Of a stretch of 50,659 bases of DNA, positions 5,097 to 25,966 are shown piece by piece. The number at the start of each line of letters is the position of its first letter. The first letter of the stretch is position 1. The position numbers and the translations under genes are program-made. Source of the stretch: a virus (lineage: Duplodnaviria > Caudoviricetes); the IMG/VR virus record IMGVR_UViG_3300020144_000015, positions 1-50,659 of that record. The stretch is one strand, 5' to 3'. The notes beneath the pieces are model-generated. The model searched no databases. It had not been told where the DNA came from and saw nothing but the letters and a program-made list of their open reading frames with translations.

Positions 5097-5569
5097 GCGA
5101 GCCCCAAGCCAGCCGGCGGCTGCGCGCTGATGTCTATCGCGCCCTCAAGACTGATTTCGGCCTGCTGGTCGATGAAATCGGCACGCAGGGGCAGGCGGCG
5201 GAGCTGACCAATGTCAGCCAGCAGACGCTTTCGTCCTACGAAAACCGCAATCGCGCGGAATTTGCGCCGGTGGACGTGCTGGCCGATCTGCTCGACCGAA
5301 CGCGCTCCACCCATGTGCTGCGCATCCTCGCCGATATCGCCGGCGCCATCGTGGTGCCGTTGCCCCAGGATATCGGCCCCGTCGCCATCGTCGAGGGCTC
5401 GGGCGCCATGGCGCAGGCGCTGGGCAAGGCCATGGTGGCCATCGGCCAGGCGCTCGCCGATGGCGAAATCAGCCCGGACGAGGCCGAGGCGATCCTGCCC
5501 AAGCTGCAATCGATCATCGTCAGCGCCCACAAGCTGATGGAGCAGATCAAGGCGGAGGCGGGGCTATGA
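5093..5569 (+). CDS. Phage CII-like regulatory protein
   Basis: HTH (QAAELTNVSQQTLSSYE) plus C-terminal ALADGEISPDE motif; GGAGGG RBS. Confidence 0.7.
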   Translation: MSEPQASRRLRADVYRALKTDFGLLVDEIGTQGQAAELTNVSQQTLSSYENRNRAEFAPVDVLADLLDRTRSTHVLRILADIAGAIVVPLPQDIGPVAIVEGSGAMAQALGKAMVAIGQALADGEISPDEAEAILPKLQSIIVSAHKLMEQIKAEAGL

Positions 5570-6657
5570 GCGAGCTGGCCGTTTACGAACATGCCCGCGA
5601 GGCCCTGGCCGCCGCCGTCAGCTTCGACGAGGTGACGAAGCTGCATGGCGATGCGCAGAAGGCGAAGGCCTATGCCCGTATCGCCAAGGACCGGAAATTG
5701 CAGGCCGATGCCACCGAGATCGTGGCGCGAGCCGAGCGCAAGCTGGGCATCCTGTTGCGCAAGGTGAAGGATGACGGCCTGCTGAGCCAGGGCGGGCGCC
5801 CGACCAACAGCAATGTTGCGGAGCCGGAAACCGGTGCGGAAGGGGAACCGGTTTTCGACAACACGGCGATGGGCGGGGCGGCTGACAGGCCGTTTACGCT
5901 GGCCGAGATCGGCATCGACAAAAAGCTCTCCAGCCGGGCGCAAAAGCTTGCTGCGCTGGAAGAGGACGATTTCGAGAGCGCGGTGCAGGAAAGCCGCGAG
6001 AAGATCCTTTCCGCCGCCGCGCCGGTGGTCAGCCCGCCCAAGCCGAAGCCGGTCAAGGCGGAAAAGCCCGCCCCGATCGCTCCGCTGCCGCCGCGCAAAT
6101 GGCACCAGTTCGCCTTTTCGGTGCTGGCGCTCAGCCTGTCGAGCGACCGGGTCAGCAGCGATGCGGTGCAGAAGCTGGCCGAGTTCTGCGGCATTGCCGC
6201 GCTCGACGGCGAGACGGTGGATTTCACGCCGGAAGCCATCGAGGCGATGGGCAGCCTGGCCACGGTCGCCCTGAAAGCGCTGGACGGCGAAGAGCATGAT
6301 GAACGTTACACCCAGGATCGGCCGGCAGCGGCTGAACCGAGCGCGGCACCCGCAAGGGACGCCGCAGCGGATGGCAGGCCTGTCGAAGCCACGGCGGAGC
6401 AGCCGCCATCCGCACCCCTTTCCACGGCTGAGGCCGACGCGATCATTCGCGGCGCTTATGAAGGCAATACCACCGGCGGACCGTTGGTCGGGCTGCTGGC
6501 GGCTCAGATCGGCCGGCCCGGCAAGGCCGGCAAGGCCTATGTGCGCAACCGCGCCCGGGTGATGGGGCTGTCGAGCCGCGACAATCAGCGCGCCGCCGCC
6601 TCGGCCTTTGCCACGGCGCAGCATGCAGCGCGGCGCGAAGGGGAGGGGCAGCCATGA
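5566..6657 (+). CDS. Hypothetical DNA-binding protein
   Basis: N-terminus (RAERKLG...TLAEIGIDKKLSSRAQKLA) resembles the domain often found before phage MT-A70 methylases; no methylase motifs seen. Confidence 0.65.
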   Translation: MSELAVYEHAREALAAAVSFDEVTKLHGDAQKAKAYARIAKDRKLQADATEIVARAERKLGILLRKVKDDGLLSQGGRPTNSNVAEPETGAEGEPVFDNTAMGGAADRPFTLAEIGIDKKLSSRAQKLAALEEDDFESAVQESREKILSAAAPVVSPPKPKPVKAEKPAPIAPLPPRKWHQFAFSVLALSLSSDRVSSDAVQKLAEFCGIAALDGETVDFTPEAIEAMGSLATVALKALDGEEHDERYTQDRPAAAEPSAAPARDAAADGRPVEATAEQPPSAPLSTAEADAIIRGAYEGNTTGGPLVGLLAAQIGRPGKAGKAYVRNRARVMGLSSRDNQRAAASAFATAQHAARREGEGQP

Positions 6658-6893
6658 GGCATATGCCCACCTATCGCCCCGACGAGATCGTCGCCCGCGT
6701 CGTGCTGGAGCCCAGCGGCAGCCATCGCCTTGATGTCGAGACCGTCGGCGGCATCATGATCGCGTCCTATGGCGCCGGCGCCGTCGAGCAGATCGAAGCC
6801 GCCTGCGCGCAGTTCCGGGCCATCACCGCCCGCGCCGATGGCGGCCCGCAATTCCACAATCGCAAAATCGTACCGGTCGAGGTGCCCAGATGA
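6654..6893 (+). CDS. Hypothetical protein
   Basis: 79 aa, ATGA-coupled on both sides. Confidence 0.65.
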   Translation: MRHMPTYRPDEIVARVVLEPSGSHRLDVETVGGIMIASYGAGAVEQIEAACAQFRAITARADGGPQFHNRKIVPVEVPR

Positions 6894-7420
6894 ATGCCAT
6901 TGCGACGAACCTGCACGCGCGCGCCCTCCAGGCCGATGCCGAGCACGACCCGCATTTCCTGCATGGATTGCTGCTGATGCTGGAGCGCGACGTGTCCTTC
7001 CCGGTCATGGCGCGCCTGGTGGGCATGCCGGCATCGCGGCTGAAAAGATGCGCGATCGATGCGCGGGCGGGCCTTGCGGGGCGGGCGCGGATCGGTTCGG
7101 GTATCGACAGTGCACCCGAAGCGGCCCGGCCATCGCCCGCCGGGCGCGAGCTGTTCAAGACGCCCTGGCGCCGTGTCGCCATCGAGCTGATGGCGCGCCC
7201 GTCCGGCGCGCTGACCGGCGAGCTCAATATCGTTTTGTGCGATTTCGACATGCTGCAGAGCGGCAAGCTGTTGCAGAGCCTGCGCAAGGGCCTCTGCGCC
7301 GAAGGGTTCGAGGTGAGCATCGAGCCGGACGCGAAGGGCCGGCAGAGCCGCTATTTCTTCGCCGAGGACGTGCGAGAGCGCGTCATCAGCCTCATGGCCA
7401 ATGGCTGGGTGGCGGCATGA
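6890..7420 (+). CDS. Hypothetical protein, possibly winged-helix
   Basis: 176 aa, ATGA-coupled on both sides. Confidence 0.65.
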   Translation: MNAIATNLHARALQADAEHDPHFLHGLLLMLERDVSFPVMARLVGMPASRLKRCAIDARAGLAGRARIGSGIDSAPEAARPSPAGRELFKTPWRRVAIELMARPSGALTGELNIVLCDFDMLQSGKLLQSLRKGLCAEGFEVSIEPDAKGRQSRYFFAEDVRERVISLMANGWVAA

Positions 7421-9333
7421 ACGCTATCGGCTCATTCTCTCGCGCCCGCCGCATCCGGCGCCCATTGCCCTCCTTCGGCCTCGACGATCGCATGACCGTG
7501 GTGCTGTTCGCCGGCATGGGCGGCGGCTGCGACGGGTTGGAAGATGCCGGCTATCATGTGCATCTGGCGATCAATCACGATCCGCTCGCCATTGCGGTGC
7601 ATGAAAAGCGGCATCCGCACACCACCCATATGCGCTGCGACGTGTTCGAGGTCGATCCGCGCCAGGCGACGAAGGGCCGGGGCGTGCGTGCGCTGCATGC
7701 TTCGCCCGACTGCACGCATTTCTCGGTTGCCAAGGGCAGCAAGCCGGTCAGTAAACGCAGCCGCTCGCTCGCCTGGGTGGTGGTTCGCTGGATGGGCCAG
7801 GTGCATCCGGAACTGGTCACCCTTGAGAACGTGCAGGAAATCCAGACCTGGGGTCCGCTGATCGCCAAGCGCTGCAAGAAAACCGGGCGGGTGCTGAAAC
7901 TCGACGGCACGGTGGCGGCCAAGGGCGAGCATGTGCCGGTGCAGAACCAGCAGCTCGTTCCCGATCCGCGCCATAAGGGCCGTATCTGGCGCGCCTGGCT
8001 CAAGCATGTTGCCCGCCTGGGCTATAATTTTGAGGGGCGCGTTCTGGTCTGCGCCGATTATGGCGTGCCTACCATTCGGAAGCGCTATTTCGGCGTGGCG
8101 AAGGCCGATGGCGGGCCCATTGCCTGGCCGGAACGGACGCATGCGCCGCGCAAGCTGGCGCGGAAGCTCGGCCTCAAGCCGTGGGTCGGTGCGCATACGA
8201 TCATCGACTGGTCGCTACCCATGCGCTCGATCTTCGGGCGGAAAAAGCCGCTGGCCGATGCGACGCTGCGCCGGATCGCGCGGGGTGTCATGCGCTATGT
8301 GATCGAGGCGCAAGACCCGTTCATTGTGCCGATCACCCACGCTGGCGGGGACCGGATGACGCCGGTCACCGAGCCCTTGCGGACACTGACCACGGCGAGT
8401 CGCGGCGAAATGATGCTGGTGTCGCCTGTCGTGGCGGGCGTCGGCGGGCGAATGGGGCAAAGCGCGGAGCGCGACACGCGGGAGCCCTTACAATCGCTGA
8501 CCACGAAGCCGGACAGTGTTGTCGTGGCGGCGCATCTAACCAAGTTCTCGGAAAATGCAGTGGGCCTAGACCCGCGCGAACCGCTCAACACGATCATGGC
8601 GGGCGGGCAGGGGCACGCGGTGATTGCCGTGACGATGGTCGATCTGGCGCATGGCGAAACCGGAATGGCCGGCGGAAAAGAGCGAGGGCGCGATCTCCGC
8701 GAACCAGTTGGTGCGCTGCATGCTGGTGGCGGCAACGCGGCGCTCGTGGCGACGTTCCTGGCCCAGCACAATGCCGACAGCCGCCGCATCGGTGGCGTCA
8801 ATCCCGGTCGGGATGCCCGTGAGCCCGTGGCGACGCTGACCATGCAATCGCAGGTTGGCGTGGGCGCGGTGACGCTCGGCCGGCTGCGCGGCGCCGATAT
8901 AGATGGTCAGGATGTGCGCGAGCCCCTGCCGACGCAGACCTGTGGTGGGGGGCATGAAATGCTCATCATGCCGTTTTTGCAGGCCTATTATCAAAGCGGC
9001 TCGGAAGGGCAGCGCGTTGACGACCCGCTCCGCTCGCTCACCGGCAAGGCCAGGCATAGCCTGGTCACGGTCGAAGTCGACGGCCAGACGATGGTCGTAA
9101 CCGACATCCTCATTCGCATGCTCGACTGGAGCGAGGGCGCCCGGGCGCATGGTTTCGATCCCGCCAGCCTGCGGCACGAAATCGAGGTCGTCGACAAAAA
9201 GGGCCGAACGATCAGCCGCCCGCCCACCAAGACGGAGTGCGGTCATCTGATCGGCAATTCGGTGCCGCCGCACATGGTGGAACTGCTGGTTGGCCTCAAC
9301 GCCACGCCCGAGCTGATGGTGGCAGCCGGATGA
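7417..9333 (+). CDS. C5-cytosine DNA methyltransferase (phage orphan type)
   Basis: LFAGMGG (motif I), SPDC (IV), ENV (VI), RKR (VIII), IGNSV (X); repeated D-x-REP-x-x-T units. Confidence 0.92.
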   Translation: MNAIGSFSRARRIRRPLPSFGLDDRMTVVLFAGMGGGCDGLEDAGYHVHLAINHDPLAIAVHEKRHPHTTHMRCDVFEVDPRQATKGRGVRALHASPDCTHFSVAKGSKPVSKRSRSLAWVVVRWMGQVHPELVTLENVQEIQTWGPLIAKRCKKTGRVLKLDGTVAAKGEHVPVQNQQLVPDPRHKGRIWRAWLKHVARLGYNFEGRVLVCADYGVPTIRKRYFGVAKADGGPIAWPERTHAPRKLARKLGLKPWVGAHTIIDWSLPMRSIFGRKKPLADATLRRIARGVMRYVIEAQDPFIVPITHAGGDRMTPVTEPLRTLTTASRGEMMLVSPVVAGVGGRMGQSAERDTREPLQSLTTKPDSVVVAAHLTKFSENAVGLDPREPLNTIMAGGQGHAVIAVTMVDLAHGETGMAGGKERGRDLREPVGALHAGGGNAALVATFLAQHNADSRRIGGVNPGRDAREPVATLTMQSQVGVGAVTLGRLRGADIDGQDVREPLPTQTCGGGHEMLIMPFLQAYYQSGSEGQRVDDPLRSLTGKARHSLVTVEVDGQTMVVTDILIRMLDWSEGARAHGFDPASLRHEIEVVDKKGRTISRPPTKTECGHLIGNSVPPHMVELLVGLNATPELMVAAG

Positions 9334-9662
9334 CAGGCGTTTTAAGACAATCTCGCCGTGTAGTACGGGTTCTCGCCGCAAGAAAGGGCGTAGGCCCCTC
9401 CTTCATTGCGCGTGATCTCCAGCAGGACATTGCCCTTACTCGTCAACGCCTGGACGATCTTGTCGTCGGTAAGGTGCCGCGCAGCGAGAAGCCTAATCAC
9501 TTCCCGCGCCCGCGCCTCGGAAATCGTGACCTCGACTTCGTAGAAAGGTTCAACGCCGTCGTAGCCGGTTATTGTCCATTTGCTGAACATAGAGCCCTCC
9601 TTGAGCAGGGTTGGAACTATCGCCCCGACGCGTCGGAAAAAGCAATTGGGGGTGTATGTTGA
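9330..9662 (+). CDS. Sense-strand bridging ORF over an antisense gene
   Basis: Starts in an ATGA overlap with the methylase stop; its stop overlaps the next ATG (ATGTTGA). Confidence 0.35.
   Translation: MTGVLRQSRRVVRVLAARKGVGPSFIARDLQQDIALTRQRLDDLVVGKVPRSEKPNHFPRPRLGNRDLDFVERFNAVVAGYCPFAEHRALLEQGWNYRPDASEKAIGGVC
9342..9590 (-). CDS. Antisense moron-like hypothetical protein (82 aa)
   Basis: AAGGAGG RBS; lower GC than flanks; protein-like composition. Confidence 0.7.
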   Translation of the reverse strand: MFSKWTITGYDGVEPFYEVEVTISEARAREVIRLLAARHLTDDKIVQALTSKGNVLLEITRNEGGAYALSCGENPYYTARLS

Positions 9663-12289
9663 ACCTCCCCCTCCGCTATGAGGACTTTCTTGCCGCCAAG
9701 GTCGCCATGGCGCCGGTATCGGGCTTCCTGGTCCATGACGACGAGATCAACCCGCTGCTGAACCCGCATCAGCGCGATAGCGTCAAATGGGCGTGCCTTG
9801 GCGGGCGGCGGGCGCTATTCCTGGCCTTTGGGCTGGGCAAGAGCTTCATCCAGATCGAAATCCTGCGCATCATCCGCGCCCGCTTCGGCGGCATGGGCCT
9901 GATCGTGGCGCCGCTGGGCGTGCGCCGCGAATTCATGGCCGATGTGCGCACCCTGGCCACGGGTGACCATCCCGATATCACCGATGCGCAGCGGGCCGCT
10001 CTGGCGGCGTGGCAGGAAGGGCATGCGGAGCGCGTGCCCCAGCTCACCTTCATCCGGACTGATGCCCAGGCCCAGGCGCCGGGGCTCTATATCGCCAATT
10101 ACGAGCCGGTGCGCGACGGCAAGATCGATCCCGCCCGCTTCACCGCGTCCAGCCTGGACGAGGCATCGGTGCTGCGCGGTTTCGGCAGCACCAAGACCTT
10201 CCGCGAATTCATGCGGCTGTTCGACGGGGTGCGGTTCAAGTTCGTGGCCACAGCCACGCCCAGCCCCAATGAGTATATCGAGCTTCTGGCCTATTCGGCC
10301 TTTCTCGAAGTTATGGATGTGGGCCAGGCAAAAACCCGCTTCTTCAAGCGCAATAGCGAAAAGGCCGACACGCTCACCATCCATCCGCACAAGCAACGCG
10401 AGTTCTGGCTATGGGTGGCGAGCTGGGGCCTCTTCGTGCAGAAGCCATCGGATCTCGGCCATAGCGATACGGGCTACGAGCTGCCCGGGCTCGACGTGTT
10501 CTGGCACGAGCTGCCGGCCGATCACTCCACGGCCGGCATGGAAAAGAGCGGGCAGGGACGGTTGCTGCGCAATGCAGCCGCCAGCCTCTCCGACGCGGCG
10601 CGGGAAAAGCGCGACAGCATGCCGGCGCGCATCGCCAAGATGCTGGAGCTGCGCCAGATCGACACCCAGGCGCACCGGCTGATCTGGCACGACCTCGAGG
10701 ACGAGCGGCGCGCCATCGAGGCGGCGGTGCCGGGTGTGGCCACCGTATATGGCAGCCAGGACCTGGCGCGCCGGGAAGAATTGCTGGCAGACTTCGCCGA
10801 AGGCCGGCGGGCCGAGCTGGCCGGCAAGCCTTCCATGCTGGGCTCGGGCGGCAATTTCCAGCGGCATTGCCATTGGGCGGTGTTCCTGGGCATCGGCTTC
10901 AAGTTCAACGACTTCATCCAGGCGGTTCACCGCATTCATCGCTTCCTGCAACGGCACAGGGTGCGCATCGACCTCATCTATACAGAGGCCGAGCGACCGG
11001 TGCGCGATAGCCTCGAAGCGAAATGGCGCCGCCATGACGAGCAGGTGGCGATCATGACCGGCATTATCCGTGAATACGGCCTCACCTCGGCCGCGATGGC
11101 CCAGAGCCTTACCCGCGCCATGGGGGTGGAGCGCGTCGAGGTCGCCGGCGAGGGCTATGTGCTGGTCAACAATGACTGTGTGCCCGAATGCACCGCCATG
11201 GCGGCCGACAGCGTCGACCTGATCGTCACCTCGATACCGTTCTCGACCCAGTACGAGTATTCGCCGAACTATGCCGATTTCGGTCATACCGACGACAATG
11301 CGCATTTCTGGGCGCAGATGGACTATCTGATCCCGCAATTGCTGCGCGTGCTACGGCCCGGCCGGGTCGCCGCCATCCATGTGAAAGACCGGATCGTTCC
11401 GGGCGGCATGACCGGGCTGGGGTTCCAGACCGTCTATCCGTTTTCGGACGATTGCGTGCGCGCCTTCGTGCGGCACGGCTTCGCCTTCCTCAGTCGCAAG
11501 ACCATTACCACCGACGTGGTGCGGGAAAACAACCAGACCTATCGGCTGGGCTGGACCGAGCAATGCAAGGATGGCAGCCGCATGGGCAACGGGTTGCCCG
11601 AATATCTGCTGATCTTCCGCAAGCCGCCGACGGACAATTCCAATGGCTATGCCGATAGGCCGGTGGCCAAGCGGAAAAAGGAATGGAAACAGGGTCAATG
11701 GAGCGAGGCCGAAGGCTATAGCCGGGCGCGCTGGCAGCTCGATGCCCATGGCTATATGCCGGTTTCCGGCAATCGCCTGCTCACCGGCGAAGAGCTGCGC
11801 AGCCTCGATGCCAATGTCATCTTCAAGCTGTGGAAGGCCTACCAGCTCCACGCGGTCTATGATTTCCAGCACCATGTGAAGATCGCGGAAGAGATGGAGG
11901 AATGGGGCTCGCTCCCCTCCACCTTCATGCTGCTGCCGCCCCATTCCAAGCATGACGATGTGTGGACCGATGTGGCGCGCATGCTGAGCATGAACACGCT
12001 CCAGGCGCAGGCCGGGCGGGAAATGCATCTCTGCCCGCTGCAGTTCGACATCATCGATCGCTGCATCACGCAATATTCCGAGCCGGGCGAGATCGTCTTC
12101 GACCCGTTCGGCGGGCTGATGAGCGTGCCCTATCGGGCCCTCAAGCTCAGGCGCCAGGGGCGCGCCGTCGAGCTCAACCCCGCCTATTTCGTCGATGGCT
12201 GCCAATACGTGAAGGCCATGGCCGACGAGCTGGCCATGCCGGACCTGTTCGGCGTGCTGGAGATCGAAGAAGGGGAGCAGGTGGCATGA
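9656..12289 (+). CDS. SF2/SNF2-like helicase fused to an N4/N6 DNA methyltransferase
   Basis: FGLGKS, LDEAS, ATATP, QAVHRIHR helicase motifs; then TSIPF (motif IV-like) and DPFGG (SAM-binding). Confidence 0.88.
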   Translation: MLNLPLRYEDFLAAKVAMAPVSGFLVHDDEINPLLNPHQRDSVKWACLGGRRALFLAFGLGKSFIQIEILRIIRARFGGMGLIVAPLGVRREFMADVRTLATGDHPDITDAQRAALAAWQEGHAERVPQLTFIRTDAQAQAPGLYIANYEPVRDGKIDPARFTASSLDEASVLRGFGSTKTFREFMRLFDGVRFKFVATATPSPNEYIELLAYSAFLEVMDVGQAKTRFFKRNSEKADTLTIHPHKQREFWLWVASWGLFVQKPSDLGHSDTGYELPGLDVFWHELPADHSTAGMEKSGQGRLLRNAAASLSDAAREKRDSMPARIAKMLELRQIDTQAHRLIWHDLEDERRAIEAAVPGVATVYGSQDLARREELLADFAEGRRAELAGKPSMLGSGGNFQRHCHWAVFLGIGFKFNDFIQAVHRIHRFLQRHRVRIDLIYTEAERPVRDSLEAKWRRHDEQVAIMTGIIREYGLTSAAMAQSLTRAMGVERVEVAGEGYVLVNNDCVPECTAMAADSVDLIVTSIPFSTQYEYSPNYADFGHTDDNAHFWAQMDYLIPQLLRVLRPGRVAAIHVKDRIVPGGMTGLGFQTVYPFSDDCVRAFVRHGFAFLSRKTITTDVVRENNQTYRLGWTEQCKDGSRMGNGLPEYLLIFRKPPTDNSNGYADRPVAKRKKEWKQGQWSEAEGYSRARWQLDAHGYMPVSGNRLLTGEELRSLDANVIFKLWKAYQLHAVYDFQHHVKIAEEMEEWGSLPSTFMLLPPHSKHDDVWTDVARMLSMNTLQAQAGREMHLCPLQFDIIDRCITQYSEPGEIVFDPFGGLMSVPYRALKLRRQGRAVELNPAYFVDGCQYVKAMADELAMPDLFGVLEIEEGEQVA

Positions 12290-12507
12290 ACAGGATTGAG
12301 AAACTGCGCTGGCAGCTTGCAGACAACAAAGTTGCCTATGAAGCCGGCCGGCAGGGCAGTCCGGAGCGCGATGGCAAATTTGCCGCGCGGGAACAGGCCA
12401 TCCTCATGCAGTTCCATGTCTATGGCGTAGCACCCTCCTATCCCGAAGGATGGCTGGAGGGCTATCTGAGGGGCGGTGCCGACTGGCACAGGCAGGTCCG
12501 GCCATGA
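12286..12507 (+). CDS. Hypothetical protein
   Basis: 73 aa (MNRIEKLRW), ATGA-coupled on both sides. Confidence 0.65.
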   Translation: MNRIEKLRWQLADNKVAYEAGRQGSPERDGKFAAREQAILMQFHVYGVAPSYPEGWLEGYLRGGADWHRQVRP

Positions 12508-12887
12508 CCGTGCGCCGCGAAATCCTGCCCCAGCGCCGCTATTGCGAGAGCTTCGACCTCGCCTTCCCACCTTTCACCGGCAAGCTCTACACCGTGACGC
12601 TGGGGTGCCATCCCGACGGCAGGATCGCCGAGGTGTTCATCAGCTCGCACCGCAAGGTGGGCAGCGATAGCGACCTGGCCGCGCGCGACACCGCCATCCT
12701 GATTTCGTTGGGCCTGCAACACGGCGCCACGCTCGAAAACCTGACCGGCGCCATGACCCATGACGCCGCCGGCCGCCCGGAAGGGCTGGCGGGGCAGGTG
12801 CTGCTGCACCTGCTCGACTGGCAGCGCGCCCATCCCTTTTTACAGACCGAGTTCAACCAAGGAGACGACCATGAAGACCAAGACTGA
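12504..12887 (+). CDS. Stand-alone TSCPD-like (class II RNR C-terminal) domain protein
   Basis: RREILPQRR...YTVTLG..PDG..AEVFI....K.GS......D.AILISLGLQHG pattern. Confidence 0.7.
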   Translation: MTVRREILPQRRYCESFDLAFPPFTGKLYTVTLGCHPDGRIAEVFISSHRKVGSDSDLAARDTAILISLGLQHGATLENLTGAMTHDAAGRPEGLAGQVLLHLLDWQRAHPFLQTEFNQGDDHEDQD

Positions 12888-13791
12888 CGACGTGCCTTTC
12901 GGCCTTTCCAAGGTCGACCCCACCCGCCCGGCCTTCGAGTGCGTGGGAAACCGCCTGATCGTGGCCGATGCCATCACCGTTATCGGCACGGATGGGACCA
13001 ACCATCATTTCGAAAGCGGGCGGGAAGTGCTGTTCGACGCCGACCATGCAGCGCCGGGCACTGATTTCGCCGTGGTGCTGACCGATGACGGTAATCTCGC
13101 CGCGCTTGCCTGGGCGGGCGATCTTTCCGAGCACGACCATCGCATCGGCGGGTTCCATTTCGCCCCGGGCGGTAATGCGACGGCGCGGCAGGGCGGCGAT
13201 GCCGTGCCGGCGATCAACCCGGACTCGATCTGGGATGATGCGTTCCGTCCGGCCTGCGCCGATCCGCGCGGCATGGCGCTCGATGTGCTGCCCGGTGGGC
13301 GCAAGGTGTGGGGCGACATCTATTTCACCGGTGTCGGGCACCTGGAAAACGGCACCTCGCGCCATGGTGTCGTCATTGCCGATGGCGGCAGCAACTTGCC
13401 CGGAAAGCCAAGCGGCGGGCTGTTCAAGGTGCTGGATTTCCAGGTGGCCCAGCAGATCGCCGCCCATCACGGCAAGCGCCTGTTGAGCTTCGAGGAATTC
13501 GCCTCGGGCGCCTATGGCGTGACCGAACGCAGCAGCGACGACGACAAGGCGGCGCTGACCGGCCTTTCCATGGCCCGCACTTCGCGGCGGGGCTGGCACC
13601 AGGCGACGGGGCAGCGCTGGACCTGGGGCACCGATGGCGATCCGGACGATCCCCGCGCTTCCCTCCTGGGCGGTTCGTGGATCGACAGGTCGGACGCGGG
13701 CTCGCGTTTCGCGCCCCTCGACTACTGGCCGGGCAGCTCGGACGAGGGCCTCGGCCTGCGCCTCGCCAGTGACCACCTGACCGCTGCCTAG
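12871..13791 (+). CDS. mtd: DGR target protein, Mtd-like CLec fold with C-terminal VR (306 aa)
   Basis: AAGGAG RBS; GGFHFAPG, SIWD..FRP...DPRGM, HHGKRL, W.WG, GGSW..., SDHL match remembered BPP-1 Mtd motifs. Confidence 0.9.
   Translation: MKTKTDDVPFGLSKVDPTRPAFECVGNRLIVADAITVIGTDGTNHHFESGREVLFDADHAAPGTDFAVVLTDDGNLAALAWAGDLSEHDHRIGGFHFAPGGNATARQGGDAVPAINPDSIWDDAFRPACADPRGMALDVLPGGRKVWGDIYFTGVGHLENGTSRHGVVIADGGSNLPGKPSGGLFKVLDFQVAQQIAAHHGKRLLSFEEFASGAYGVTERSSDDDKAALTGLSMARTSRRGWHQATGQRWTWGTDGDPDDPRASLLGGSWIDRSDAGSRFAPLDYWPGSSDEGLGLRLASDHLTAA
13655..13773 (+). repeat. DGR variable repeat (VR)
   Basis: 119-nt ungapped match to 14216-14334 with 13 mismatches, all opposite a TR adenine. Confidence 0.97.
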
Positions 13792-13810
13792 CCAGCCCGG
13801 AAGGGCTGGC
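13791..13810 (+). promoter_or_regulatory. DGR target-recognition hairpin downstream of IMH
   Basis: GCCAGCCC-GGAA-GGGCTGGC: perfect 8-bp stem with a 4-nt loop, starting at the target stop codon. Confidence 0.9.
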
Positions 13811-13828
13811 GACGATTTGGAGAAAAGC

Positions 13829-14197
13829 ATGATTGTCAGGGATGAGAACGCCGCCGTTCCGGCCCTGGCAATCGTCGAAAAATACGAGACGCTGGTGGCC
13901 TATCTTTATCCCATATTGCAGAACTGTCCGCGCCGGCACGGCATCGCCCGTGATCGCGCGCTCGATGTGCTGCTCGGCGTGCCCGAGCTGCTATACGGCG
14001 CTTCTGCATCGAAACAGGTCTCGAAACTTTACGCAGTTGATGGCGCGCTGGCCACGCTGCGTTTCTGGCTGCGCTTTTTCGTCCATGCCGACCGCAAGGT
14101 CATCACGCCGCATCAGCAGCGCACCGCCCTGGCCATGCTGGCCGAGGTGGGGCGCATGCTGGGCGGCTGGCAGCGGGCGCTAAAGGGCAGGGGGTGA
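13829..14197 (+). CDS. avd: DGR accessory variability determinant
   Basis: YLYP..Q..PR.HG.AR, QVSKLY..D..LA.LRFWLRF, TPHQ, AEVGRMLGGW; GGAG RBS. Confidence 0.93.
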   Translation: MIVRDENAAVPALAIVEKYETLVAYLYPILQNCPRRHGIARDRALDVLLGVPELLYGASASKQVSKLYAVDGALATLRFWLRFFVHADRKVITPHQQRTALAMLAEVGRMLGGWQRALKGRG

Positions 14198-14215
14198 TCG
14201 GGGTCATGATTTGGG

Positions 14216-14334
14216 GCGCTTCCATCCTGGGCGGTTCGTGGATCAACAGGTCGAACGCGGGCTCGCGTTACGCGAACCTCGACAACTGGCCGGACAACTC
14301 GAACGAGAACATCGGCCTGCGCCTCGCCAGTGAC
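14216..14334 (+). repeat. DGR template repeat (TR)
   Basis: Seven AAC codons in the VR frame; 24 adenines; located between avd and RT. Confidence 0.97.
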
Positions 14335-14528
14335 GGCCATGCCTGGCTGTCGGCTCCGCGACGGTCACGGCCGCGCGGGCCGGCCACGTCAATTATGATT
14401 GGTGGTCAGCCCGGTTATCCTGCTTCGGCGAATACATTGCTCGGTCCGGTACAGCGGGGCGTAGCAGGGCACCTGTCATTGCCTTGTCGAGACCCGCGAC
14501 CGGCTCTCGGCGGTTGCGGGGGCGCCCA
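14335..14528 (+). ncRNA. DGR spacer (3' part of the TR-RNA, IMH*/priming region)
   Basis: Position between TR and RT; GGTGGTCAGCC...TCCTGCTTCGGCGAA.AC resembles the BPP-1 spacer as remembered. Confidence 0.6.
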
Positions 14529-15524
14529 ATGACCAGGCGCTTCCGCAACCTGATCGGCCCGATCACCTCCGACGACAATATGCGCGCCGCTCTGCGCCTG
14601 ACCGCGCGGGGCAAGCGCTGCACGACCGGCTATCTGGAATTCAAGGAATTCGACGCACTCAACCTCGAAGCGCTGGCCCGCGACATGCGGCGCGGCGCCT
14701 ATATCGAGGGCGCGCCGCGCATATTCACCATTTTCGACCCCAAGCAGCGCCTCATCACGGCGCTGCCGTTCCGCGACCGCGTGGCCCAACAGGCGCTGTG
14801 CCTGGTGATCGGCCCAATCTTCGAGCGGACACTGTTGCCGCGCGCCTATGCCTGCCGACCGGGCAAGGGCACCCATAGGGCGGCGCGCGACGTGCAGGCC
14901 GAGTTGCGGCGCATGGGCCGGGACGGCCTGCCGGTCTATGTGCTCAAAACCGATTTTTCCGCCTATTTCTCCTGCATCGAGCGGGATGTGCTGCACCGGC
15001 TGGTTGCCTCTAAGATTTCCTGCGCCGCCACGCTCGACCTGATCGGCCGCATGGTGCCGCGCGCGGGAATCGGCCTGCCCATCGGCTCGCTGACCAGCCA
15101 GATCTTCGCCAATGTCTATGGCGGCGTGGTGGATCGGTTTCTCCAGCAGGAAATGGGGGAGCCGTCCTGGTTTCGCTACATGGACGATATCGTGGTGCTG
15201 GGCCGCTCGGCCGAGCATCTGCACGCGCTGCGCGTCGCCATCGAAGCCATGGCGGCTGAACGGCTCGGCCTGCGTTTTTCCAAATGGTCGGTGCAGCCGG
15301 CCACGCGCGGGGTCAATTTCGTCGGCTATCGCATCTGGCCCACCCACAAGCTCATTCGCCGCGACAGCGTGGTGCGCGCCCGCCGCAAGATCGCCGCCTA
15401 TCGCGCCGCCGGCGATCATCAGCGGCTGGAGCGCTTCCTTGCCGCATGGACGGGCCATGCCAGCCATGCCGATACACGCAATCTGGTGCGCTCGCTGGCC
15501 ATCGATATGGAGGGCACGCGATGA
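14529..15524 (+). CDS. brt: DGR reverse transcriptase (331 aa)
   Basis: FRDRVAQ, KTDFSAYF, GLPIGSLTSQIFAN (DGR-type SQ), RYMDD, NFVGY; no maturase or endonuclease domain. Confidence 0.96.
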   Translation: MTRRFRNLIGPITSDDNMRAALRLTARGKRCTTGYLEFKEFDALNLEALARDMRRGAYIEGAPRIFTIFDPKQRLITALPFRDRVAQQALCLVIGPIFERTLLPRAYACRPGKGTHRAARDVQAELRRMGRDGLPVYVLKTDFSAYFSCIERDVLHRLVASKISCAATLDLIGRMVPRAGIGLPIGSLTSQIFANVYGGVVDRFLQQEMGEPSWFRYMDDIVVLGRSAEHLHALRVAIEAMAAERLGLRFSKWSVQPATRGVNFVGYRIWPTHKLIRRDSVVRARRKIAAYRAAGDHQRLERFLAAWTGHASHADTRNLVRSLAIDMEGTR

Positions 15525-16717
15525 CACTGTCCCCCGAGCTGGCCACGCTGCGCGACGAAGCCATGGCCGTCACCTGCTGGAGTTGGGCCGATTTCAGGGG
15601 CTGGAAGCTCGGCCCCGGGCCGGACAAGGCTGGCCCTTGTCCAAAATGCGGCGGAACGGATCGTTTCGCCATCCATACGACCAAGAACACCTTCCTGTGC
15701 CGCCGCTGCGGCCTTGCCGGCGGTGGCGTCATCGACCTGGTGATGCAGACCGAGGGCCTGAAATTCGTAGCTGCATGCGAGCTGATTACCGGCCGGCGTG
15801 TCGCCGATCCGGTCTCGGCCGAGGAACAGGCGCGCATCCATCAGGAGGCGGCGCAGCGCGAGCGCGAACGTGCCGCCGAAGAGCAGAAGCGTCGCCTGCG
15901 GGCGATCAATGAGGGGCTGGGCATTTGGGAGCGCACAGCGGCGCCGGGACCGCTGGGGCAGGGTGGCGTGGCTGACTATCTCCAGCTGCGCGGCATCGGC
16001 GGTCTGCACCTGGACAAGATATTGGTCCGGGAAATCATGGCTCATCCTTATGTCGTCGAGGTCGAGGATGAGCGCGGCCGCAAGAGCTATCCGACGCTAC
16101 ACACCGGACCCTGCATGGTGGCGGCCGTGGTCCTGCCCAATGGGCAGTTCGGCGCCGTGCATCAGACATGGCTCGACCTGACCCACCCGAAGGGCAAGGC
16201 GCGGCTGTTCCATCCGACCCGGACAGAAAAGGACGGATCGCCCCTGGCGCTGCCGGCCAAGAAGGTGCGGGGCAGCAAGAAGGGCGGCGCCATCAAGCTC
16301 TATTCGCCACGCCATGCGCGCCGCATCGTGATGGGCGAAGGAATCGAAACCACTCTGACCGCCCTGCGGCACAATTTCGAGGCGAACACGGCCTATTGGG
16401 CCGGCGTTGACCTGGGCAACATGGCCGGCCGGGCGCTGCTCGGCGTGGATGGCAAGCGCCATGAGGCCGAGCCGAATCTCGATGATGCCGAATGCTTCCT
16501 GCCACCCGACTGGTGCGCGGAGCTGGTCTATCTCTGCGACAGCGACGAGCCCGAGACTCGGACGGTGGAAAAGGTCACCCGCGGCCTCAAGCGCGCCCAG
16601 CATTTCCGCGATCTGGCACGAGCGACCAAGCCGGACCTCGCACCGCTTGCCACCTCCTTTGTCGAGCCGGTCGGCAACGGCAAGGACCTCAATGATCTGG
16701 TGAGGGCTGACCCGTGA
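15521..16717 (+). CDS. Primase (P4-alpha-type Zn ribbon + Toprim)
   Basis: GPCPKCGGTDRF...CRRC; GEGIETTL; KDLND; ATGA overlap with the RT stop. Confidence 0.85.
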   Translation: MTLSPELATLRDEAMAVTCWSWADFRGWKLGPGPDKAGPCPKCGGTDRFAIHTTKNTFLCRRCGLAGGGVIDLVMQTEGLKFVAACELITGRRVADPVSAEEQARIHQEAAQRERERAAEEQKRRLRAINEGLGIWERTAAPGPLGQGGVADYLQLRGIGGLHLDKILVREIMAHPYVVEVEDERGRKSYPTLHTGPCMVAAVVLPNGQFGAVHQTWLDLTHPKGKARLFHPTRTEKDGSPLALPAKKVRGSKKGGAIKLYSPRHARRIVMGEGIETTLTALRHNFEANTAYWAGVDLGNMAGRALLGVDGKRHEAEPNLDDAECFLPPDWCAELVYLCDSDEPETRTVEKVTRGLKRAQHFRDLARATKPDLAPLATSFVEPVGNGKDLNDLVRADP

Positions 16718-18552
16718 CCGATACGCCCGACGACGAAAACCCGGTCAAAAAGGCCATGGGCAAAAAGAAGACGGTTAAGCTCACCGTTGTGGACGGGGGT
16801 AAGGCCGAAAAGCCCAAGCGCACCCGGAAGCCCGCTGCGCCCAAGGATGAAGCGCCGCCTCCGCCGGAGGAGGGCGACCCCGGGCCAGCCGAGCCCGATT
16901 ATGGTGATGCCGATGACTTCGGCAGTAATGATGGGATGGATGAGGCCGAGCTGATCGTCACCCGATGGTGTGCCGGCCTCGATCAAAACGATCGTGACAA
17001 TGGGCGGCGGCTGGTCGCCTGGTTCGGGCCGGACATCAAATATGTGACGGGGTTGGGCTGGCTGGTCTGGAAGGGCACGCACTGGCAGCGCGACGAGGCC
17101 GACCTCGATGTCCGGTTGCTTGCGCAATGCATCGTCGACAAGATCAAGCTCGAGGCCATTGAGCTGGAAGCGAGTGACCGGCAGAAGCGTATCCTCGAAC
17201 GCTCGACCGAATTGCTGAAAAAGCAGGGTGAATTGAGCGCGGCCGAAGAACGGATCATCAAGACAGCCGGCGAAATCATGACGGCGCTGGGCAAGCGCCG
17301 CTCCTCGCGCATCGCCTGGGCGGTGACCTCCGGCAATTCCGGCCGCACCAAGGCAATGCTGGAGCAGGCACAATCTTTGCAGGCGCTGCCCATCGACCGG
17401 CTCGATGCCGATCATAACCTGTTCAACGTCGCCAATGGTACATTGCGGTTCTGGAAGGAGCTTGATCCTGACCAGCCCGAAGGCGGCAGCCGGATGATCG
17501 GGCGTTTCGAGTTTCTGCCGCATGATCGGGCTCATCTCATCACCAAAATGGCCGATGTCGAGTATCACCCCGAGGCGACAGCTCCATTCTTTCACGAAAC
17601 CTTTCTGGCCAAGGTGCAGCCTGAAGCGCGTTGGCGCACCTTCATCCAGGTGTCGACGGCAGTCGCGCTGCTGTTCGGCGGCAATGATGAGCAGAGGCTG
17701 TTTTTCCACTATGGCACCGGCGCCAACGGCAAGAGCGCCTTCTTCGAGCTGATCGGTCGCCTCGCCGGTTCATATCGGCAGATCGCATCCCCGGAATCGA
17801 TCACCGGCGATGGCCAGCGGGCGGGCCAGCAGGCCAACCCCGACATCGCCCGCCTGCACAACGCACGCCTGGTAACCATCGAGGAACTGCCCAAGAATAC
17901 GCCGCTCAAAGAAGAGCTGATAAAGGCGCTGACCGGCGGCACCAAAATCCTGGCGCGATTCCTCAACAAGGATTTCTTCGAGTTCATGCCGCAGTTCACG
18001 CCCATGCTCTCGGGCAACAACAAGCCGGCGATCTCGGGCACTGACGAAGGCATCTGGCGGCGGTTTCTGTTCGTGATCTGGGGCATCAAGATCCCGGAGG
18101 GCGAGCGCATGCTGCCGACCGAACTGGCGGCGCGCCTCGATGCTGAACGCTCTGGCGCGCTCAACTGGTTGATTGAGGGCGCATTGCTCTATCTCCAGCA
18201 TGGGCTCGATTTTTTCACGCCGCCCGAGGCCAAGGCCTTCGCCCAGGACTATCGGGAAGAGCGCGACAATGTCGGCGTGTTTGCTGAAGTCGCCATTGAG
18301 AAGGCCTTGCCAGCCGATGGCTGCAAGGTGCAGGCGGGCGATCTCTACAAGGCCTATCTGCGCTGGTGCGAGGCCAACCAGCTCAAGCCTGCCAGTAATC
18401 GCAGCTTCGGGGACCGGCTCAGCGATCTAGGTTTCCAGAAAAAGCGCTCGAACTACTATTACTACATCGACATCCGCCTCAAGGATGGCTTGGCCGGCTC
18501 TTCGGGGGGCGATGGTCCGCCACCTCGCGACCCGGACGATCCGGGGCTCTAG
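16714..18552 (+). CDS. D5/P4-family SF3 helicase (primase-associated)
   Basis: YGTGANGKS Walker A; IKALTGG; NNKP; GIWRR; C-terminal winged helix. Confidence 0.9.
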   Translation: MTDTPDDENPVKKAMGKKKTVKLTVVDGGKAEKPKRTRKPAAPKDEAPPPPEEGDPGPAEPDYGDADDFGSNDGMDEAELIVTRWCAGLDQNDRDNGRRLVAWFGPDIKYVTGLGWLVWKGTHWQRDEADLDVRLLAQCIVDKIKLEAIELEASDRQKRILERSTELLKKQGELSAAEERIIKTAGEIMTALGKRRSSRIAWAVTSGNSGRTKAMLEQAQSLQALPIDRLDADHNLFNVANGTLRFWKELDPDQPEGGSRMIGRFEFLPHDRAHLITKMADVEYHPEATAPFFHETFLAKVQPEARWRTFIQVSTAVALLFGGNDEQRLFFHYGTGANGKSAFFELIGRLAGSYRQIASPESITGDGQRAGQQANPDIARLHNARLVTIEELPKNTPLKEELIKALTGGTKILARFLNKDFFEFMPQFTPMLSGNNKPAISGTDEGIWRRFLFVIWGIKIPEGERMLPTELAARLDAERSGALNWLIEGALLYLQHGLDFFTPPEAKAFAQDYREERDNVGVFAEVAIEKALPADGCKVQAGDLYKAYLRWCEANQLKPASNRSFGDRLSDLGFQKKRSNYYYYIDIRLKDGLAGSSGGDGPPPRDPDDPGL

Positions 18553-18961
18553 CTCGCCAACGGAAGGCAGCGGCCGGGACGGTCGCGCCTTCGTCGCCGC
18601 GCCCCGCACCCCATTTTTTCAGAGAAAAGGAAGTCCCAAACCTCCCGCCGCTATCGCGGCGCGATAGAGGTTTGGGAGATTTGCGGGAGGGTGAATGCAA
18701 TTGTCCCGTAACTATTTCAATAGCAAAATCAATGTGTTCCTCTGAAAATTAGAGGGTTGGGACTGTCTCGGGCGCGTAATGTAAGGGGGCAGGGGTGTGG
18801 GGTGAATTGGCGCGAAACGGAATGGCAAAAACGGCTCATGCGTCATTGGCAACTGTCCCAAGCGTTCCATCCTCTACAACACCTTCTATTCGCTTCGCTT
18901 TCTCCGATAGAGGTTTCCAAAAGAACCTCTAAGGACTGTCCCAGATAAGAGGTTTAGAGCC
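18553..18961. other. Structured intergenic region, candidate replication origin
   Basis: Nested inverted repeats, repeated TGTCCC/GGGAC motifs and an AT-rich patch directly after the helicase. Confidence 0.45.
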
Positions 18962-19546
18962 ATGGCTATAACAATAGATGTGGAAGAGCTGGTGATCTGG
19001 GCCTTTCGGGATCAGAAGGTCGAAGCGGTTGCGCGCAACATGATGCCGTCGCTGCCGACATGGTCGTCGGATAGCTCGCTTGCACAGGTGCTGGCGCTGG
19101 GCACGAAGGTGGACACCACGTCGGCTGGGTCGCGCTTCGTCGCATTGCATTGCCGGGAGGATGCAGCGGTCATCTTCGATGCGGTTATGGCCTTGCCATC
19201 CGAGGCGCGCATGCTGGTGGTTAAGCACGCTCGATCCGGAACGCGCCCCGAATGGCACGAAGAGGGGCCAGGTGAGTGGGTGCAGCCGGTCGACAAGCGC
19301 GGCAATCCCAAAAAGCTCTGGCGCGATCCGTCGACGCAGCGTGGTTTCCTCGGTTATGCGCCCAAGGAACTGGTGGGCACGCATCCGACGGTGGTGGAAG
19401 AGGCGCGCCGGGCCTATTGCGTCTGGTGGCTCGCCCTGGGCGACATTGTCGACCTGCTCAATGGGCCGGATGGCCTCACCGAATTCCAGGCTGTTCAGCC
19501 GAAGGATGCCACTCCGCCATGGTTTGTGTCGTGTCAGGTCGCATGA
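18962..19546 (+). CDS. Hypothetical protein at the late-regulator (Q-like) position
   Basis: 194 aa; last gene before the late promoter-like region. Confidence 0.7.
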   Translation: MAITIDVEELVIWAFRDQKVEAVARNMMPSLPTWSSDSSLAQVLALGTKVDTTSAGSRFVALHCREDAAVIFDAVMALPSEARMLVVKHARSGTRPEWHEEGPGEWVQPVDKRGNPKKLWRDPSTQRGFLGYAPKELVGTHPTVVEEARRAYCVWWLALGDIVDLLNGPDGLTEFQAVQPKDATPPWFVSCQVA

Positions 19547-19551
19547 GGGTG

Positions 19552-19643
19552 TTGACGTGTGGGTAAAAATTGACATAGCTTCACCACAACAAATCAGGTC
19601 TTGAGTTAGGCGCTTCGGGAAACCGTAGCGCCTTTGTCGTTTT
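19552..19643 (+). promoter_or_regulatory. Candidate late promoter followed by a terminator-like hairpin
   Basis: TTGACG (19552) and TTGACA (19570); AGGCGCT-TCGG-GAAA-CCGT-AGCGCCT (19608-19633) then a T-rich tract. Confidence 0.55.
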
Positions 19644-19655
19644 CGAGGTGTTGTG

Positions 19656-20033
19656 ATGGGTAGGCTCAAGGTTGTCCCATCGCGCCTTAAGGTGCCAGCG
19701 CCACGCATAGGCTTCGCCAGCGGCGACCAGAGAGCAGGCGACAGGGCGCGCAATGCAGCGGCGCCTTGGCGGGCCTGGTATCGCACTGAGCGGTGGGCCG
19801 ATCTGCGCACTGCTGTCTTTGCGCGCGATGGCTTTCGGTGCCAGCGCACCGGGCAGTTGTGCATGGGAGAGTACCCGGCACCCGACAGCCCGGTCGCCAA
19901 CCACAAGAAACCGCATCGCGGCAACCCGGACCTGTTCTGGGACATCAACAATATCGAGACGGTGGCGAAGTCGGTGCACGACGGCGCCATTCAGGCCGAA
20001 GAGCAGGCAATTCCAACAGGCCGCTGGGACTGA
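19656..20033 (+). CDS. HNH endonuclease (terminase-associated)
   Basis: RDGFRCQ, NHKKPHRG..LFWD.NN, VHD; directly before terS. Confidence 0.88.
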   Translation: MGRLKVVPSRLKVPAPRIGFASGDQRAGDRARNAAAPWRAWYRTERWADLRTAVFARDGFRCQRTGQLCMGEYPAPDSPVANHKKPHRGNPDLFWDINNIETVAKSVHDGAIQAEEQAIPTGRWD

Positions 20034-20120
20034 CGACACGACAGGGGGGGGGGCGGTCGAAAGTCTGGGCGACCTCGGGGCCTCGTACCGGCTTGGGGGT
20101 CACGTGGAGATTTTTTTCTC
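20034..20120. other. Candidate cos region
   Basis: HNH-terS gap with G10-CGGTCGAAAGT...ACCG...GAGATTTTTTT, typical of cos-phage end regions. Confidence 0.5.
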
Positions 20121-20594
20121 ATGGCGCAAGATTTTGACCTGCTCGGGGACCCAATCCCCGAGGGGTTTGGCAAGCGCGGGCGTCCGCCGCACATGCCGAC
20201 AGATGAAAAACGCAGACTTATCATGATGTTAATGCGCGTTGGCAAAACGGATCAGCAGATTGCCGACACGTTCCGCATCTCGCTGCCGACCCTGCGCAAG
20301 CATTATTTTCGGGAACTGCGCGAACGGGCCAAGGCCCGGGACATCGCGGACGGAAAAATCCTTTCCGCGCTGCTCGACCAGGTCGATGCCGGCAACGTCG
20401 CCGCCATCAAGGAGATGAGCCGCATGTTCGAAAAGCATGACCTGGCTGCGCTGGCGGAAGCGATCAAGAACCGTGGCCAGCCCGACCGGCCGCATAATGA
20501 ACCGAAAAAAGGAAAGAAGGAGCAAATTCAGGCGGCGGCCGAGAATGTGACCGGGATTTTTGCCCCGCCGCCGCCACCCGAGAAACTCAACTGA
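20121..20594 (+). CDS. terS: Terminase small subunit
   Basis: [23 protein letters not shown]; coupled to terL. Confidence 0.82.
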
Positions 20595-24313: not shown

Positions 24314-24372
24314 TCGATCGAAATTCCGGCGGCGTGGTGTCGCCGGTAGGCGCCTTGAATGGCGCGGCCAAC

Positions 24373-24395
24373 GGCTCGCTTCGGCGGGCCTTTTT
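24373..24395 (+). terminator. Intrinsic terminator-like hairpin before the capsid gene
   Basis: GGCTCGC-TTCG-GCGGGCC-TTTTT. Confidence 0.55.
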
Positions 24396-24410
24396 CTTAG
24401 GAGTATAGAC

Positions 24411-25892: not shown

Positions 25893-25966
25893 GCGTAGCG
25901 CGCCGGTATGATCCGGCGCGTTCCATCCCCCTTTATAGGCGCCGCTGCTGGCGCAGGAGCCCTCCC

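Follow-up and report, generated by a model that had tools for sequence, protein, structure and literature searches.

What becomes of a hypervariable phage protein when the part presumed to fasten it to the tail fibre is missing? The question is raised by a provirus of 50,659 bases from IMG/VR (record IMGVR_UViG_3300020144_000015, rated complete by CheckV and, at its full length, referred to here as the window), which carries a diversity-generating retroelement (DGR) of the type known from phage BPP-1. There the variable protein is Mtd, and in the excerpted text of PMC10743442 its beta-prism is presumed to attach it to the fibre. We find that the target of the window's DGR is a short Mtd-like protein that lacks the beta-prism. 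The gene lies among early and lysogeny genes and, judged from its homologues, belongs to a large clade of similarly anchor-less targets, an arrangement that appears to differ from the known one of BPP-1. Almost certainly the DGR is an intact one of the BPP-1 type with this gene as its one variable-protein gene, in the order target, avd, template repeat (TR) and reverse transcriptase (RT). The elements of the target gene and of the cassette are as follows, VR being the variable repeat.

12859-12864, plus strand: Shine-Dalgarno-like AAGGAG, 6 nt 5' of the target ATG (direct sequence reading)
12871-13791, plus strand: DGR target, short Mtd-like variable protein of 306 aa (open reading frame, Pfam, phmmer, tblastn, AlphaFold2, Foldseek, PHROG)
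12970-13236, plus strand: beta-sandwich domain (Pfam mtd_2nd, PF21916), target residues 34-122
13237-13788, plus strand: C-type-lectin-fold domain with the VR at its C-terminal end, homologous to Mtd residues ~171-379 (phmmer, Foldseek)
13655-13773, plus strand: VR, 119 bp (ungapped match to the TR, 13 mismatches)
13792-13809, plus strand: GC-rich hairpin CCAGCCC-GGAA-GGGCTGG, 7-bp stem and 4-nt loop, directly after the TAG stop (sequence reading)
13829-14197, plus strand: avd, accessory variability determinant (PF22296, NF033474)
14216-14334, plus strand: TR (VR/TR alignment)
14484-15524, plus strand: DGR RT, from TTG 14484, with an alternative ATG at 14529 (PF00078 RVT_1)

That the target is a true homologue of BPP-1 Mtd, made of the beta-sandwich and lectin domains only, is in our judgement nearly certain from the sequence comparisons. 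Against the sequences of the PDB, phmmer aligns target residues 8-304 with Mtd 53-379 (1yu1, 1yu4, 1yu3 and 1yu2; E 6e-40 to 3e-39), and tblastn finds 34.9% identity to BPP-1 mtd over query residues 6-303. A preliminary description of this DNA, made without database searches, had placed the similarity to Mtd from the beta-sandwich through the lectin domain and named three motifs; the alignment bears this out, and K.D...AF, GTD(F/Y)A...DDG and GGFH(F/Y)APG all fall within it. PF21916 mtd_2nd is the sole Pfam match of the protein (33.6 bits, cut-off 24.6) and scores 35.5 bits (E 4.5e-10) in a six-frame search of the window. Foldseek gives Mtd (1yu0-1yu4) as the best PDB matches of the AlphaFold2 model (mean predicted local distance difference test score 83.9, predicted template modelling score 0.86), with query-normalised template modelling scores of 0.81-0.83 and E ~1e-23. 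A prediction of the homotrimer from three copies (alignment A1, described below) scored 0.15 against a mark of 0.42, and bears on a trimer neither way. The loop before the VR, described beforehand as shortened, does have ~18-22 residues fewer than that of Mtd (query 253-262 vs Mtd ~312-335 by phmmer).

What the target lacks is the first domain of Mtd, a beta-prism of 50 residues (Pfam Mtd_N, PF18454). The 306-aa reading frame, which begins with MKTKTDDVPFGL and stands behind AAGGAG at the spacing given above, as the preliminary description had it, has ~15 unconserved polar residues in the place of the prism. No Pfam match to Mtd_N is found in this form, nor in a 343-aa form starting at the upstream ATG 12760, and when all 50,659 bases of the provirus are searched in six frames no Mtd_N match exceeds the cut-off of 26.3, so that the earlier claim of an absent beta-prism extends to every other gene of the provirus. 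The best score, 12.6 bits at 5803-5862 inside an open reading frame (5566-6657) with weak unknown-function matches only in PHROGs, is noise, the same level being reached in eight of 14 control genomes. Likewise, the match of the target to the PHROG 11262 profile ('tail protein') spans residues 6-304 and profile positions 69-391 of 393, leaving the first 68 positions unmatched. The absence of a signal peptide, also proposed earlier, holds as far as Kyte-Doolittle hydropathy goes: residues 1-20 are polar, the N-terminus has no hydrophobic segment, and the highest 19-residue mean of the whole protein is 1.27.

The rest of the cassette is that of a BPP-1-type DGR. VR and TR align over 119 bp without gaps and all 13 mismatches fall at TR adenines, a pattern that shows past DGR activity only; no second VR-like copy is found in the window. 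Avd matches PF22296 bAvd with 84.6 bits (cut-off 40) and NCBIfam NF033474 DivGenRetAVD with 105.8 bits (cut-off 80). The RT matches PF00078 RVT_1 at E 1.5e-12, its NCBIfam matches to other RT classes being sub-threshold only, and it is 61-74% identical to the RTs that adjoin short-Mtd genes in related viral loci. The excerpted text of PMC3240598 describes phage DGR targets as followed by a GC stem of 7-10 bp with a 4-nt GRNA loop; the window hairpin, with a 7-bp GC stem and a GGAA loop, fits this description. With the BPP-1 DGR (mtd-avd-TR-brt; PDB 1YU0-1YU4, 2IOU) the window thus shares the cassette order, a target composed of a PF21916 beta-sandwich and a C-type-lectin domain with the VR at its C-terminus, adenine-specific VR/TR differences and a GC hairpin with a GRNA-type loop after the VR. 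Contigs of four sequencing runs show no VR variants, though contigs drop rare variants; the two DNA runs with the best matches may be where the window comes from. Between 12000 and 16000 a promoter and terminator scan gave no promoter-like site and one terminator-like site inside the RT gene, at or below the level of shuffled sequence.

Is the short form a peculiarity of this provirus? Among 5.8 billion proteins searched there are 528 homologues at E 1e-5 or better; of the best 120 of the 528, 118 have at most 329 aa and none carries PF18454 Mtd_N in the precomputed Pfam column. The sources named among the homologues listed are Mesorhizobium, Afipia, Bradyrhizobium, Rhizobium, Agrobacterium, Ochrobactrum and other Hyphomicrobiales, and Hyphomicrobiales are the main hosts of the short form. 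In alignment A1, made from 46 of the homologues listed, no more than 28 residues precede a conserved DP in 43 of 46 rows; residues 1-11 are its least conserved part (highest entropy), and 35 columns are invariant among the 46 rows. A short Mtd is by these comparisons a trait of the family, not a one-off. Scans of viral contigs with the single protein had given 66 pattern matches, none of them confirmed; alignment-based scans, used instead, brought 79 viral and 53 genome loci (132 in total). The counts of loci that follow include exact duplicates, and independence is therefore overstated (L034=L037=L112, L019=L021=L025=L099, L008=L009, L055=L056, L012=L086, L066=L088, L018=L091 and L027=L093). 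Within the close family, defined by 42% identity or more, the upstream stop is in view for 166 copies (132 loci and the window), and in 98 of them an in-frame stop lies at most 45 codons upstream of core residue 12. Among the other 68 the Mtd frame has the top third-codon-position GC in six, namely the window, which is ambiguous, L116, L039, L047, L075 and L119, a genuine tail-fibre fusion.

Could the few residues before the core serve as a peptide anchor? Paralogues of one phage have a median identity of 20% over the 15 pre-core residues vs 58% over the core; because these residues differ even between paralogues of the same phage, no phage-specific anchor peptide, and no shared one, is apparent in the short forms. 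A few listed proteins are longer. P0121 (594-641 aa; L072, 4345-6270), seemingly a fusion of ParB to Mtd, is a probable artefact of open reading frame calling, its middle part reading out of frame and GGAGG with an ATG preceding the usual Mtd start. P0056 (445 aa) has a nucleoside 2-deoxyribosyltransferase-like part in frame before a short Mtd (Atlas feature score 0.96, a lead only), and P0106 (434 aa) has a ProQ/FinO domain there in precomputed Pfam; each of them may be a true fusion or, as with P0121, the result of merging two gene calls. Searches of PDB sequences with P0056 and P0134 matched the Mtd core only and left the N-terminal parts unmatched.

The clade appears to be in active use. 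Our VR/TR survey covered 171 target copies, 165 of them with a TR match, leaving 144 after removal of 21 duplicates, 135 of which are close-family. In 133 close-family pairs with at least three mismatches, none has less than half of the mismatches at TR adenines, 86 have at least 90% and 39 have all of them there; proximal and tandem distal copies are alike in this respect. In many related cassettes the short-Mtd gene occurs two or three times, the copies lying in tandem or separated by a few kb (multi-target loci include L006, L007, L012, L013, L023, L024, L027-L030, L035, L036, L039, L041 and L045), and up to three to four copies were seen in L030, L050 and L057. The VRs of these copies all match the one TR, differing from it mainly at adenine sites, so that such DGRs have several targets, all of them anchor-less paralogues. 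In one near-identical pair, L063 and L069, compared for VR turnover, the differences are spread throughout. The family has no match in 72,556 plasmids. A collection of cultured phages holds 14 matching records, none from a phage of Hyphomicrobiales, with alignments that start at query residue 6 or later; the genes inspected there are longer than the target (BPP-1 mtd 381 aa, gp20 of P12026 494 aa). Cultured lysogens are found among the loci, in isolates of Mesorhizobium, Rhizobium, Bradyrhizobium and Shinella.

The position of the gene is a further departure from BPP-1. The target lies in a block of methylase and replication genes, ~26 kb upstream of the tail-fibre genes, as the main genes of the window show.

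7450-9333: C5-methylase, upstream of the DGR
9611-12289: helicase/N6-methylase, upstream of the DGR
12450-12887, plus strand: small open reading frame of 145 aa, overlapping the target start by 17 nt
15521-16717: primase, downstream of the DGR
16714-18552: D5-like primase-helicase, downstream of the DGR
20594: terminase
22327: portal
23552: protease
24411: major capsid protein
28958-30145: minor tail protein
33217 onward: tail chaperone and tape-measure genes, the tape measure at 34027
39508-42120 and 43679-45451: tail fibres
46422: endolysin

BPP-1 mtd comes directly 3' of the tail-fibre gene bbp9; the window target does not follow a tail-fibre gene, and no Bbp9 homologue is found in the window. 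A receptor-binding protein of the tail-fibre tip would be recognised by an attachment module of its own or by a tail-fibre or baseplate gene beside it, and the window target has neither. The two systems differ also in their carriers, the hosts of the window's clade being alphaproteobacteria and the phage of the window having a tape-measure gene.

The same setting recurs around related cassettes. By tblastn the only window proteins matched near them are the methylases, the helicase-methylase, the primase, the D5-like protein, HNH and terminase; the window's tail fibres were never found there. The commonest neighbour clusters, named after their representatives, are a methyltransferase, a CII-like regulator, DUF5131, a sliding clamp, GapR, integrases and DUF2303. 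We tallied by PHROG the nearest genes of at least 150 aa, 68 upstream and 72 downstream. Upstream there are seven CII-like genes, several methyltransferase families with five each, five sliding clamps, and repressors; downstream there are 19 integrases, 14 members of PHROG 2045 (function unknown in PHROGs) and primases. No tail family is among the 25 commonest PHROG families on either side of the short-form cassettes.

Do these phages at least share a tail? In 41 viral records of at least 35 kb that carry the short form, 19 of them at least 90% complete, a tail sheath (PF04984) is present in seven (four of the 19). The window's distal fibre is matched in two (none of the 19), its central fibre in four (one of the 19) and its major capsid protein in 15 (seven of the 19), five of the 15 strongly. 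Across related cassettes the targets are 43-53% identical, Avd 44-61% (one partial match 69%) and the RTs 61-74%. The cassette, it appears, travels independently of virion genes, in phages with unrelated tails and heads, and this would fit a function that is independent of any particular tail.

Several other genes of the window were looked at. The 145-aa open reading frame was rejected as a conserved partner of the target, its homologues being present in five loci of the first cluster analysis and not always adjacent; its best matches are sub-threshold (Pfam TSCPD, E 0.0027, 18.4 bits vs a cut-off of 22.8; NCBIfam PRK07562, the C-terminal part of class II ribonucleotide reductase, E 6e-6, far below cut-off). 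A Rha/anti-repressor-like gene (31855-32748, plus strand; PHROG 518, E 6e-32) stands inside the tail gene block, after the minor tail protein and before the tail chaperone and tape-measure genes, and the open reading frame directly after the distal tail-fibre gene (45462-46388, plus strand) matches only PHROG 12615, of unknown function (E 1.3e-8). Run X4, a metatranscriptome of a different study, contains short contigs identical to parts of 6000-25999, including avd (13867-14122), terminase, portal and capsid. Because these contigs are identical to the prophage, the same or a near-identical phage was present in X4, as RNA or as carried-over DNA; they are scattered over early and late genes and cannot rank expression or separate early from late timing.

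A question remains, is the missing beta-prism a loss? A profile search of 1.84 billion representatives gave 1015 proteins at E 0.001 or better, 371 of them at 1e-30 or better, and the start of the core is included in 144 of the best 150. More than 60 residues, and up to several hundred, precede the core in 101 of the 144, 31-60 (the size class of BPP-1) in nine and at most 30 in 34. Of 109 extended proteins, 87 were scanned with Pfam; mtd_2nd is present in 85, and the N-terminal families are DUF2793 (three), Mtd_N (two) and Phage_T7_tail, Collar, Laminin_G_3, Collagen and BppL_N (one each). The extensions that can be named are few and of tail-fibre types, most having no Pfam family. The beta-prism is thus only one of many interchangeable N-terminal modules and not the norm of the family, Mtd_N being present in two of the 87 extended representatives scanned.

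Single loci illustrate what such modules look like. L119 (Haematospirillum, 9200-10903) has a P2-type Phage_tail_fib N-terminus (E 7.6e-55) fused to the Mtd core, and the gene upstream of it matches PHROG tail and baseplate families. In the 644-aa proteins of L122 (9053-10987) and L123 (9050-10987), both from Thiobacillus, the first 146 residues are homologous to Bbp9, the tail fibre of BPP-1. These three fusions appear to be instances of N-terminal module swapping. L121 (Polaromonas) carries Mtd_N, the Mtd-core gene of L126 comes after the gene of a virion structural protein, and gp20 of Marinomonas phage P12026 stands at the end of the tail module. Proteins such as those of L119, L122/L123 and P12026 gp20 have the same sandwich and lectin core, 32-44% identical to the window protein, behind N-terminal modules of 130-330 residues that are of tail-fibre type where recognisable; the window target has none. 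The anchor-bearing forms checked (these and L126) are beside, or fused to, tail or virion-structural genes, unlike the window target.

We built an unrooted maximum-likelihood tree from 95 core sequences. In it every one of the 11 N-extended rows, together with three short ones (L115, L124 and L131), belongs to one clade with a Shimodaira-Hasegawa-like approximate likelihood ratio support of 99, which excludes the short clade of Hyphomicrobiales; the other 81 short rows, the window included, are outside it. Because the tree is unrooted, gain of an N-terminal module is as possible as its loss. The preliminary description had held that loss of the attachment end fits repurposing of the protein: the absent prism, the early-gene site, the occurrence throughout the clade and the unrelated tails agree with that proposal, and its direction does not follow from the tree. 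L115 (Cellvibrionaceae), L124 (Opitutales) and L131 (Hydrogenophilales), with Mtd-core genes of 317-341 aa, stand inside the anchor-bearing clade, L115 after a DNA methyltransferase and L131 after a portal-like gene. Anchor-less forms may, from this topology, have arisen more than once.

Other targets without the beta-prism have been described. According to the excerpted text of PMC10743442, nd4_tgt2 and nd12_tgt2 of gut myoviruses are phage targets of 234-294 aa with a C-terminal VR that likewise lack it; they lack the beta-sandwich as well, carry DUF6273 and have no HHpred similarity to Mtd, whereas the window protein is a clear Mtd homologue. Treponema TvpA, Legionella LdtA and Thermus TaqVP share the C-type-lectin fold that displays DGR-varied residues (excerpts of PMC5758913 and PMC6328139). 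Such cellular variable proteins are chromosomal, and those of Legionella and Treponema are surface-displayed (PMC8144416, in excerpt); they belong to the formylglycine-generating-enzyme type or to other lectin subclasses, in contrast to the window target with its Mtd-type core, phage context and lack of an export signal. The excerpt of PMC5758913 takes targets as tail proteins and does not mention the short clade. We found no paper on this clade or on the early-gene position; Table S1 in the supplement to PMC5758913 and the tables of target clusters in PMC8144416 could include the loci.

How might an anchor-less Mtd act? We propose that the RT would copy TR RNA with errors at adenines, and that the cDNA would replace the VR (13655-13773) and rewrite the ligand-binding face of the C-type-lectin domain. 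The short Mtd would then be a hypervariable binder complete in itself, one that has no domain for building it into the tail and that moves with the cassette between temperate phages of Hyphomicrobiales. Since an export signal is missing, its action would take place in the cytoplasm, during infection or lysogeny, or else once lysis has set it free. We infer a trimeric state for it, as well as any target it may have. We favour this reading because the tail-fibre relatives have tail-type anchors, where these can be named, and tail or virion-structural neighbours, in those checked, and because the short clade is anchor-less and not beside recognisable tail genes, in spite of the unrelated tails of its carriers. 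That the short Mtd works outside the tail as such a binder seems plausible to us, if somewhat short of an even chance. It is a tentative suggestion that the short Mtds form a cassette-borne repertoire of free binders, with one to three paralogues per phage under one DGR, acting as intracellular or lysis-released lectins and not as tail parts; their targets could include host defence proteins, competing phages or surface receptors. Several points weigh against such a role. Every relative that has been studied by experiment (BPP-1 Mtd) binds receptors as part of the virion, PHROGs places the target in a 'tail protein' family, and most viral DGR targets carry a tail-protein annotation (PMC8144416, in excerpt). 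The beta-sandwich, which belongs to the body of the Mtd trimer, is kept and conserved, and could belong to an unchanged pyramid still able to dock on a fibre. The family was found in phage and prophage settings only, and gene position is weak evidence of function. Short N-termini are found in the wider family too, although some of the 34 may be truncated gene calls, and the exact duplicates inflate the counts of loci.

Several of these objections serve a rival account, which we regard as a serious possibility while leaning to doubt it: the short Mtd would still be a receptor binder, its trimer docking non-covalently on a tail-fibre or baseplate protein through the apex of the beta-sandwich or an N-terminal peptide, and the DGR would switch tropism, the gene merely being placed outside the tail module. 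Homology to Mtd over both kept domains, the 'tail protein' family and the phage-only distribution agree with it. In each phage one to three paralogues are being diversified at adenines, as would be expected of receptor binders, the excerpt of PMC8144416 has tail proteins as the bulk of viral DGR targets, and in that of PMC10743442 the authors suppose even lectin-only phage targets, without prism or sandwich, to be Mtd-like. A virion role has to accommodate, however, the lack of an anchor domain and of a conserved or phage-specific N-terminal peptide, and the absence of any tail family from the 25 commonest neighbour families (68 upstream and 72 downstream genes), whereas the anchor-bearing relatives checked (L119, L126, L122/L123 and BPP-1) adjoin or are fused to tail or virion-structural genes. 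The tail tips of the carriers are unrelated and some tails are sheathed, so that a docking site would be needed on unrelated partners, and in the window itself there is no homologue of Bbp9.

The unrelated structural modules of the carriers are equally what one would see were the cassette largely a selfish passenger, spreading between prophages with a self-diversifying target and bringing the phage little or no benefit; its frequent place at the prophage edge beside an integrase (the 19 of 72 nearest downstream genes) and the immediate neighbours that differ from locus to locus point the same way. We consider this improbable. Reading frames are intact in ~166 copies, the lectin scaffold is strongly conserved (the 35 invariant columns), VR mismatches are confined mainly to TR adenines and tandem target duplications are kept in many lineages, all of which would indicate purifying selection on a working protein. 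Nor do we give much credit to the thought that the short form is an annotation artefact, with the true start at ATG 12760 or the N-terminal domain in a separate nearby gene. The frame is indeed open for 37 more codons up to that ATG, and the third-codon-position GC of the extension is about equal in the Mtd frame (0.83) and in the frame of the upstream gene (0.81). Yet the 343-aa form adds no Pfam match, and the extension overlaps the 3' end of the 145-aa open reading frame and is not preceded by a purine-rich ribosome binding site, whereas AAGGAG precedes 12871. With Mtd_N absent from all six frames of the provirus, relatives that start at the same place and a stop at most 45 codons upstream in 98 of 166, an artefact is extremely improbable.

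Phage DGRs are prevailingly seen as tropism switches at the tips of tail fibres. Here, a clade that by its repeats is actively diversifying has no attachment module and sits among early and lysogeny genes, in temperate phages whose hosts are alphaproteobacteria associated with soil and plants. Whether its proteins are on the virion or not is experimentally tractable, since some of the loci come from cultured lysogens. Should the virion carry them, they would represent an anchor-free attachment of receptor binders, useful for engineering the host range of phages. If they are not, targeted hypermutation in phages would serve something beyond host recognition, with a binding partner that is directly testable, and a free binder would give an Mtd-family target of a phage DGR its first role outside the virion structure.

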